From IMG/VR virus record IMGVR_UViG_3300008261_000005: 64,000 bases of DNA; one strand, 5' to 3'. Shown one piece after another: positions 21,029-21,950 of the stretch (position 1 is its first letter; every line of letters starts with the position of its first letter). A program made the position numbers and the translations under genes. The notes beneath the pieces were generated by a model. That model saw only the letters and a list, made by a program, of their open reading frames with translations. It was not told where the DNA came from and did not search any database. This stretch comes from a virus.

Positions 21029-21454
21029 ATGCATTGGACTTATCAAGATACACAAATAGAAGAACTACCTGAAGACTGCGTAGGCTTCGTATATTTGATA
21101 ACCAATACAATCTCTGGCAAAAAGTACATAGGCAAAAAACTTGCAAAATTCGCTAAAACAACTTACAAAGTTGTTAAGTTAAAGAATGGCTCCAAGAAAA
21201 AGAAGAAAATCAGAAGCAAAATTGATAGTGATTGGCGTGACTACTATGGTAGCAGCCCTAACTTATCTAAAGATATAGAACTCTTAGGCAAAGAAAATTT
21301 CAAACGTGAAATTTTATACTACTGTACATCAAAGGCGCAATGCTCTTATATCGAGGCCAGAGAACAATTCCTCAATAAAGTGTTAGAATCAGACGAGTGG
21401 TATAACGGACAGATTTCTGTGCGTGTACACGGCTCACATATATTAAAATCTTAG
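21029..21454 (+). CDS. GIY-YIG (Seg-like) endonuclease, catalytic domain only
   Basis: GFVYLITNTISGKKYIGKK is the GIY-YIG motif; also DYYGSS, REIL, YIEAREQ (catalytic Glu candidate) and YNGQI. 141 aa. Confidence 0.88.
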   Translation: MHWTYQDTQIEELPEDCVGFVYLITNTISGKKYIGKKLAKFAKTTYKVVKLKNGSKKKKKIRSKIDSDWRDYYGSSPNLSKDIELLGKENFKREILYYCTSKAQCSYIEAREQFLNKVLESDEWYNGQISVRVHGSHILKS

Positions 21455-21950
21455 GCTCACAAGCGGTATTAAGCAAGCACTAGCTAAAATCCTGTGCCCA
21501 TGACAAGGGGTTTAATTACGCCCGGACGGAAAACTCTAGCCGCCAAGAGTACTCAGCAACTATCCTTAACAGGACGATGATCGGATATGCCTTCCATAAA
21601 CTGATTTTGCTGTTTAAAACAAATTTACAAGGCTAAATGAAGGGATAGTATTCCCTACGTTTGTGTGTATGTTAGCGTATACCACACAAACCGCCGTCAT
21701 ATAAAGACGTGGCTCGAGGTACAGGATGACCGCCTCTGCAATCGCCACAACGCTAAGTGAACTATGCAACTCAGATAATGTTCAAAACTTTGGCCCGCCA
21801 GGGCCAAGTGTGACTAAACAATCTAGATAATATTTAAACTGCTTCGCAGTTAATTCTATTAAATACTTTAGTTAAAGAAAAGGTGTTTATGCGTAGCAAA
21901 GCGAAGCATAAAACACTTGTGAGCGTGAGCTCACAAAGAACATACCACTG
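21455..21950 (+). ncRNA. Candidate large structured non-coding element (ncRNA or origin), family not identified
   Basis: About 500 nt with no credible gene in a genome otherwise densely coding. At least nine hairpins, including TTGGCCC-gcca-GGGCCAA (21790-807), TTGTGAGC-gtga-GCTCACAA (21917-36) and a bulged GTTTGTGTGTAT..ATACCACACAAAC stem (21659-91). The strand is assumed. Confidence 0.55.
21860..21865 (+). promoter_or_regulatory. Possible late promoter TAAATA inside the structured region
   Basis: Motif match followed by two hairpins. Confidence 0.35.

Follow-up and report, generated by a model that had tools for sequence, protein, structure and literature searches.

The locus described here lies in a 64,000-nucleotide (nt) stretch of DNA, hereafter the window, from the virus record IMGVR_UViG_3300008261_000005, whose source is a 132-kb IMG/VR virus contig that is 38% complete. 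An open reading frame (ORF) for a GIY-YIG nuclease of 141 amino acids (aa) is followed at this locus, on the same strand, by a structured non-coding RNA of ~380 nt (21472-~21852; Table 1). The phage that carries the pair is an uncultured giant freshwater T4-like phage, and the genes around the nuclease are T4-like as well. No match to positions 20400-23000 of the window was obtained with blastn in a distant mode against 50,697 phage isolate genomes, and no cultured relative was found. The original prediction for this locus, made from the DNA letters without database searches, had raised the hypothesis that the nuclease and the RNA might form an RNA-guided or ribonucleoprotein nuclease in the manner of IscB and TnpB.

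The RNA is not new, as it has been catalogued since 2010 under the name Polynucleobacter-1. The Rfam model of this family (RF01718) matched 144 nt of the window (21472-21615) with 86.1 bits against a gathering score of 37 (E 8e-19), and the match spanned model positions 1-141 of 141. A search of 21300-22100 at a permissive E-value returned nothing from Rfam beyond RF01718. According to the supplement of Weinberg et al. 2010 (Genome Biol 11:R31, PMC2864571), most copies of the motif lie downstream of genes resembling GOS11034 or PSSM2_218, no Polynucleobacter-1 copy was seen in purified phage, and the upstream gene went unnamed; their Stockholm file already annotated a 3' 'tail' with a pseudoknot. 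We found that PSSM2_218 of cyanophage P-SSM2 is 41% identical to the window nuclease (E 6e-23). The gene-RNA pairing was therefore already on record in 2010, with the gene unrecognized as a nuclease.

At ~380 nt the RNA is longer than the catalogued motif. In the relatives, sequence conservation extends from the nuclease stop codon to ~21855 (41 of 80 loci by blastn), and the non-coding stretch after the nuclease folds better than its shuffles (z -3.15, + strand). The earlier claim of a structured non-coding element of ~500 nt was thus correct as to structure, given the RF01718 match, the folding score and the covariation described below, but the conserved part is ~380 nt. Nor does the structure begin at the stop codon without a gap, as had been stated, since the RNA starts 18 nt past it, which is also the median distance in relatives. 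In some relatives (L013, L036) the stop codon does abut the first RNA helix, a point that bears on the room available for a promoter. From 21455 to the ATG of the next ORF at 21970 (273 aa), the only ORFs are of 31-51 aa or are a GTG-extended form of that next ORF, and none was accepted as coding.

Covariation was assessed by a column scan of a 73-sequence alignment, followed by a controlled pair count on 35 sequences. Helices of the RF01718 domain with compensatory changes are found at 21477-81/21493-97, 21554-59/21607-12 and 21579-84/21601-06, each with at least three Watson-Crick pair types among the 73 sequences. For the helices within 21659-21755 of the 3' domain, the covariation score was 0.451 compared with 0.190 in shuffles; none of 500 shuffles scored as high, and slid partners reached at most 0.112. 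In the pair count of this domain on the 35 sequences, 88.6% of cells were paired and 23 of 28 pairs had changed on both sides, and for the pseudoknot formed by the H2 loop the figures were 97.6% and 6 of 6. The G-U pairs of the 3' domain are consistent with the + strand only. The 3' domain thus contains two covariation-supported pseudoknots and, together with the variant 5' domains described further on, belongs to no described family.

We followed the pairing of nuclease and RNA through three independent IMG/VR samples, anchored on the nuclease, on a sequence pattern of the RNA, and on Rad50, respectively. The nuclease-anchored sample comprised 80 loci at 56-100% identity, 68 of which had enough downstream DNA. 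Both RNA domains came right after the stop codon in 41 of these 68, another 11 combined the 3' domain with some other 5' domain, and the remainder mostly had a recognizable variant RNA. No RNA could be detected over 3 kb in L048, L056, L060 and L074, where an ORF begins directly past the nuclease gene; in L048 (3420-3857) a gene for an Acb1 anti-CBASS phosphodiesterase (PF23474, E 2e-28) runs from the nuclease stop codon at the usual position of the RNA. Among the 78 usable RNA-anchored loci, the nuclease was directly upstream in 70 and separated by one extra ORF in five; the remaining three consisted of one locus with another nuclease, one (L157) in an unrelated context, and one chance match. 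The Rad50-anchored sample (62 usable loci) gave the GIY-YIG gene with both RNA domains in 59 cases, with a variant RNA in two, and the RNA without GIY-YIG in one. Its nuclease slot was occupied by a GIY-YIG gene in 61 loci and by a PD-(D/E)XK gene in one, and was empty in none. In three genomes of 345-356 kb that are 96-100% complete (G144, G145, G146), the nuclease gene and the RNA are present side by side in one copy each, and hundreds of contigs from uncultured freshwater T4-like phages have the RNA in a single copy. The gene-RNA pairing is therefore real and conserved. Co-occurrence and covariation of the downstream element in homologs had been named as a check on the original prediction, and they were borne out (59/62 Rad50-anchored and 70/78 RNA-anchored loci, with compensatory changes); a lack of conserved downstream structure in homologs, named there as the contrary outcome, was looked for and is not what the homologs show.

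In six loci (L047, L099, L105, L137, L144, L160) an ORF of 87-308 aa lies between the nuclease and the RNA. The inserted ORF of L099 has a weak methyltransferase-like match only. Those at L105:10375-11148, L137:1262-2113, L160:10623-11402 and L144:1960-2733 are 257-283 aa long and have no Pfam family.

Both partners also occur alone. In P-SSM2 the next gene follows the GIY-YIG gene with zero gap and there is no downstream RNA, and no RF01718 match was found in the nuclease loci of the three other isolates scanned (Melnitz, ACP17 and V45v66). The GIY-YIG gene follows nrdB in Melnitz and in L056, and in ACP17 it stands alone on its strand. Conversely, L157 carries the full RNA without a nuclease upstream. 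The nuclease can also be exchanged: in L296 (IMGVR_UViG_3300027749_000073) the GIY-YIG gene is replaced in situ by one for a 173-aa PD-(D/E)XK nuclease (5771-6292; PF24608 PDDEXK_15, E 2.5e-29; PHROG 'RusA-like resolvase') that ends 10 nt before the RNA. A search with the L296 protein revealed 28 contigs (loci L306-L333) with a PD-(D/E)XK gene in the GIY-YIG slot and no GIY-YIG gene. Eight of them have both RNA domains, with the 5' domain beginning a few to ~30 nt past the end of the tblastn nuclease match, and in seven only the 3' domain was detected. In the genomes searched, the two nucleases are mutually exclusive at the genome level, and classes of RNA 5' domain and types of nuclease occur in mixed combinations.

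One such variant class of the RNA (L017:3427-3900, L072:3436-3945 and L291:3285-3780; also L037, L045, L047 and L070) has an unrelated 5' domain, GGUUGGCGGGCCAG...CCGGACACGUAAC, and a recognizable 3' end. Both of its repeats read CACAUGAA in place of ACUCAGAUAAUG and AAUCUAGAUAAUA, which is to say that the two repeats change together. No Rfam match was obtained at a permissive E-value for the variant RNAs of L017, L072, L291, L071 and L076. A third non-coding variant lies downstream of the nuclease in L071, L073, L076, L078 and L081, where the GIY-YIG proteins have a short arm; it holds AAAGGGGUA..GCA.AACCGCC, similar to a portion of the 3' region in the bacterial copies described below.

The nuclease matched Pfam PF19835 (SegE_GIY-YIG) with E 1.2e-33 and 116.3 bits against a cut-off of 25, its residues 3-129 aligning end to end with profile positions 1-123. 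It also belongs to phrog_447 (E 5e-38), for which the annotation 'NAD synthetase' is a misnomer. The chain ends 12 residues past the domain, and all 80 relatives are 138-149 aa long. The original prediction was thus right that this is a bare catalytic domain, lacking the C-terminal DNA-binding domain that gives Seg-type homing endonucleases their site specificity. Its lysine-rich arm, which had been regarded as an addition to the catalytic domain, lies within PF19835 and includes a basic beta-hairpin insert (residues 40-66); judged from the sequence, it is therefore a feature of the family rather than an added RNA-binding arm. An AlphaFold2 model with a predicted local distance difference test (pLDDT) score of 87 had as its best fold matches the I-TevI catalytic domain (Z 8.5; root-mean-square deviation 2.6 Å over 82 residues), PD-T4-3 (7.2), the UvrC N-domain (5.7) and T4 EndoII (5.4), all of which are GIY-YIG nucleases. 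Sequence searches of the Protein Data Bank (PDB) with phmmer returned nothing meaningful, and Foldseek against the PDB gave weak rows only, the GIY-YIG fold being seen in the wider structure search. Residues G19, Y22, Y33-I34-G35, R93, E109 and N126 are invariant in 23 homologs (with G19-F-V-Y22 as the first motif), and R93 would be the catalytic arginine. The gene was single-copy in five genomes and is under strong purifying selection, with a median ratio of nonsynonymous to synonymous substitution rates (dN/dS) of 0.11. The family occurs in 495 isolate phage records, mostly of cyanophages (339 are Synechococcus phages). PADLOC assigned no defense system to the GIY-YIG nuclease, the PD-(D/E)XK nuclease or the proteins of the bacterial islands, and gave a weak 'HEase' match for the GIY-YIG protein only.

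The gp47/gp46 recombination module upstream of the nuclease gene is syntenic in nearly all related loci. The two small ORFs between Rad50 and the nuclease, of 63 and 84 aa, had no Pfam or PHROG match, and the 84-aa ORF is retained by near relatives, including those that bear the PD-(D/E)XK gene (tblastn). Downstream, the baseplate-hub gene is the next gene after the RNA in many relatives. In 21 of 38 loci the first ORF past the RNA is encoded on the minus strand, and on this ground a 5'-leader or riboswitch role of the RNA toward the downstream gene was rejected. Blastn similarity of the AT-rich spacer was confined, in the 80-locus sample, to the two closest relatives (L006 and L007). Strong hairpins at 21880-21937, just 5' of the next ORF, read GUGUUUAUGC...GCAUAAAACAC and GUGAGCGUGAGCUCAC, and the second of them scores as a minus-strand terminator-like site. 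Scans for promoter and terminator consensus sequences gave hits at chance level, and neither a tRNA nor a tmRNA turned up in the window with ARAGORN. The window also contains another orphan RNA from the catalogue, freshwater-2 (RF02980), at 32908-32982 (+ strand), with 53.6 bits against a gathering score of 49.9.

Table 1. Genes and RNA elements at the nuclease-RNA locus (window coordinates).
Feature	Position	Strand	Remarks
gp47-like Mre11 nuclease	17753-18811	+	Pfam Metallophos
gp46-like Rad50 ATPase	18808-20586	+	Pfam AAA_23, SMC_N
Two small ORFs (63 aa and 84 aa) between Rad50 and nuclease	20583-21025	+	
GIY-YIG nuclease ORF, 141 aa	21029-21454	+	
RNA 5' domain	21472-21615	+	RF01718
RNA 3' domain	21616-21852	+	Outside the 141-position Rfam model
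Variable hairpin, RNA 3' domain	21641-21656	+	
Hairpin H2, RNA 3' domain	21659-21670/21679-21691	+	
Pseudoknot of the H2 loop	21673-21678 with 21750-21755	+	
H3, knotted with H4	H3 21696-21700/21726-21730; H4 21716-21720/21732-21736	+	
Repeat unit 1	hairpin 21788-21808	+	Motif ACUCAGAUAAUG plus hairpin
Repeat unit 2	hairpin 21837-21851	+	Motif AAUCUAGAUAAUA plus hairpin
AT-rich spacer	21853-21969	+	Two further hairpins (~21880-21918, ~21919-21937); outside the conserved RNA
Baseplate-hub gene	23013-23855	-	phrog_150

The 5' domain of the RNA is also found in bacteria, namely in 16 of 141 Polynucleobacter genomes (~11%), sometimes twice (in G001 as two copies 18 kb apart). These copies always lie beside a divergent upstream DUF6641 gene and often upstream of a gene for a 188-aa tyrosine recombinase, in a gap of ~0.7-1 kb that is poor in ORFs (for example L230:8138-10826 in genome G039; loci L207-L223), and the regions look like accessory islands. 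No GIY-YIG gene was found near the bacterial copies, and no DUF6641 gene in the 132-kb phage contig, itself 38% complete. A profile of the phage 3' domain gave no match in the bacterial loci (nhmmer). A short motif, UAGCG...AACCGCC, appears by eye to be common to the bacterial 3' region and the phage tail. Polynucleobacter is the probable host of these phages.

We favor, with moderate confidence, the explanation that the locus consists of two adjacent genes, probably within one transcription unit, and not of a guide RNA and its effector: a nuclease of the gp47/gp46 module and an autonomous large non-coding RNA. The nuclease would be a housekeeping-type gene that fills a 'nuclease slot' at the end of this Mre11/Rad50 recombination module, since it is single-copy, the slot is never empty, and the median dN/dS is low. 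It would cut DNA by protein-only recognition, possibly in structure-specific or debranching cleavage or in the nicking of host DNA, and may stand in for T4 endonuclease VII. Searches with hidden Markov models (HMMs) for Endonuclease_7 (gp49) or RusA gave no match in G144, G145, G146, P-SSM2 and Melnitz, and the replacement of gp49 by other nucleases has been reported for some T4 relatives (Petrov et al. 2010, PMC2993671). Combined with the exchangeability of the nuclease, these observations make a debranching or structure-specific role plausible. The RNA would be made by read-through from the nuclease gene, would have its 3' end near the conserved UUC-loop hairpin at 21837-21851, and would act as an autonomous large non-coding RNA. 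If its expression depends on such read-through, as is probable, the two genes would stay adjacent without any biochemical tie between them.

Several points weigh against this explanation. In L050 two radical-SAM genes precede the GIY-YIG gene and the RNA, while Rad50 and the hub gene are both missing from the vicinity, and in L070, in yet another context, a variant RNA lies directly upstream of the GIY-YIG gene. Adjacency that is kept in such altered contexts is cassette-like and could reflect a functional tie beyond a shared transcript. In addition, the gene just 5' of the RNA almost always encodes a nuclease in this lineage, with one or the other of two unrelated folds, which a neutral-neighbor model does not predict unless the slot is fixed for reasons of its own. 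An isolated I-TevI-type catalytic domain needs a targeting partner for efficient site-specific cleavage, which puts in question where the window nuclease would obtain its substrate recognition. Furthermore, read-through transcription and the ends of the RNA are features that we infer, and the case for endonuclease VII substitution is the absence of matches in HMM searches of three genomes. It is the persistence of the pair in L050 and L070, and the near-constant nuclease 5' of the RNA, that keep our confidence at a moderate level.

The same observations lend some weight to a regulatory or protective coupling, in which the RNA would control the upstream nuclease in cis or in trans, either as a 3'-untranslated element for stability or translation or as a restraint on a self-damaging nuclease in the manner of a type III antitoxin. 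The median spacing of 18 nt after the stop codon, a similarly short distance behind the PD-(D/E)XK gene, the adjacency that survives in L050 and L070, and an upstream gene that is nearly always a nuclease would all fit such a role. However, one and the same RNA would then need to control two unrelated nuclease folds, and six loci tolerate an ORF of 87-308 aa between the nuclease and the RNA. The nuclease family also occurs apart from the RNA in cyanophages, as does the RNA apart from the nuclease in bacteria, and a 380-nt double-pseudoknot RNA is far more ornate than known 3' stabilizers. We therefore consider this coupling unlikely, if worth keeping in mind.

Still more doubtful is the notion that the GIY-YIG and PD-(D/E)XK genes are free-standing homing endonuclease genes that settled beside their target, a highly conserved RNA gene, much as T4 seg and mob genes do. 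The domain is of the Seg type (PF19835), there are weak matches to the PADLOC HEase and to several PHROG homing-endonuclease profiles, and the nuclease family is found at different places in different phage groups. Two nuclease families alternate at one locus, and among T4-related phages SegH and Hef reportedly replace mobC and mobE. Against this stand the lack of a DNA-binding domain, the single gene copy per genome and the strong purifying selection. Homing genes would be expected to be sporadic, but an empty allele occurred in 0 of the 62 Rad50-anchored loci, and the 495 phage records, 339 of them from Synechococcus phages, give a core-like distribution.

We regard as very improbable a further reading in which the RNA functions together with the nuclease encoded immediately 5' of it, be this GIY-YIG or PD-(D/E)XK, and tethers, licenses or directs DNA cleavage, for example against competing phages or host DNA. 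The only hints in its favor are that the pair persists in L050 and L070 and that the nuclease is nearly always 5' of the RNA. If true, it would represent the first case in nature of a GIY-YIG system that depends on an RNA.

The RNA-guided or RNA-scaffolded nuclease of the original prediction, in which the RNA would bind the GIY-YIG protein and direct or license DNA cleavage much as in IscB-HEARO or TnpB-reRNA, gained no support and met several obstacles, and we find it scarcely plausible. It was suggested by a small nuclease ORF followed on the same strand by an ornate RNA and by a catalytic domain without a targeting domain; the pairing is indeed conserved, and the sequence just 3' of the conserved scaffold differs between phages. 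Yet a guide-like segment was not seen within the RNA: no part inside it is both hypervariable and single-stranded, the variable parts being hairpin loops and stems, and the RNA has no match beyond chance to the rest of the 132-kb contig. The pair is single-copy and keeps a fixed syntenic place in almost all relatives, and thus is not mobile in the way of a transposon. Nuclease and RNA each occur alone, and an unrelated PD-(D/E)XK nuclease can precede the same RNA, two folds on one scaffold being hard to picture. No description of an RNA-guided GIY-YIG enzyme was found in the literature searched by titles and abstracts. Finally, a replication-origin role, with the transcript priming replication from a persistent R-loop at the AT-rich tract 21853-21880 like T4 oriF/oriG or ColE1 RNA II, is barely credible. 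In its favor are the tract and hairpins after the RNA and the adjoining recombination and replication genes; against it, relatives do not conserve the tract, the covarying pseudoknots suggest an RNA that is folded and free, and the copies in bacteria are located in chromosomal islands.

Polynucleobacter-1 has remained an orphan since it was catalogued in 2010, represented by ~16 sequences without a phage source or a named neighbor. The present locus shows a ~380-nt double-pseudoknot RNA that occurs once per genome across a large clade of uncultured T4-like phages from fresh water, with genomes of ~350 kb in three of them, nearly always behind one of two alternative nucleases and with a 5' domain in common with Polynucleobacter accessory islands. 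This provides a probable host link for the phages, a concrete construct of nuclease gene plus RNA with which the RNA can be tested, and, for T4 relatives without gp49, a candidate for the endonuclease VII-like function that they are missing. It also removes the tempting, unsupported claim of a new class of RNA-guided nucleases.

Compared with known systems, the nuclease is closest to I-TevI and the T4 Seg proteins (SegA-G), with which it has in common the catalytic domain type PF19835 and the GIY, YIG, Arg, Glu and Asn motifs. Unlike these, it has no linker or C-terminal DNA-binding domain and is single-copy and near-universal in its lineage. T4 endonuclease VII and EndoII (DenA) are likewise small phage nucleases of DNA metabolism, and EndoII is a stand-alone GIY-YIG protein of ~136 aa. 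The fold match to EndoII (2wsh; Z 5.4) is below that to I-TevI and phmmer found no match among PDB sequences; with no sequence-level match of the window nuclease to either enzyme, functional equivalence would be a matter of inference only. In T4, denA directly follows nrdB, as is the case for the window-nuclease relatives in Melnitz and L056. IscB with HEARO (omega RNA) and TnpB with reRNA resemble the locus in that a small nuclease ORF has a large structured RNA encoded next to it in the same orientation. Their RuvC or HNH nucleases, residence in transposons and constant company of protein and RNA are features of which none holds here, and no counterpart of their variable guide was seen inside the window RNA. 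GOLLD and ROOL are phage or prophage RNAs of several hundred nt with many helices and pseudoknots and no known function, as is the case here, but they have no sequence or model similarity to the window RNA (Rfam gave RF01718 only), and they are found near tRNA genes instead of following a nuclease gene. The Polynucleobacter-1 motif itself agrees with the window RNA in the full-length RF01718 match, the position downstream of a PSSM2_218-like gene, the tail pseudoknot and the freshwater and Burkholderiales habitat; it differs in that the copies described here are in giant T4-like phage contigs, with a GIY-YIG or PD-(D/E)XK nuclease upstream and with variant 5' domains. Altogether, the RNA family, its gene neighbor and the pseudoknot of the 3' tail in the 2010 file were already known, and the phage source, the nature of the neighbor and its exchange for another nuclease, the 3' domain as tested by covariation, the variants of the 5' domain and the setting of the copies in bacteria are new.

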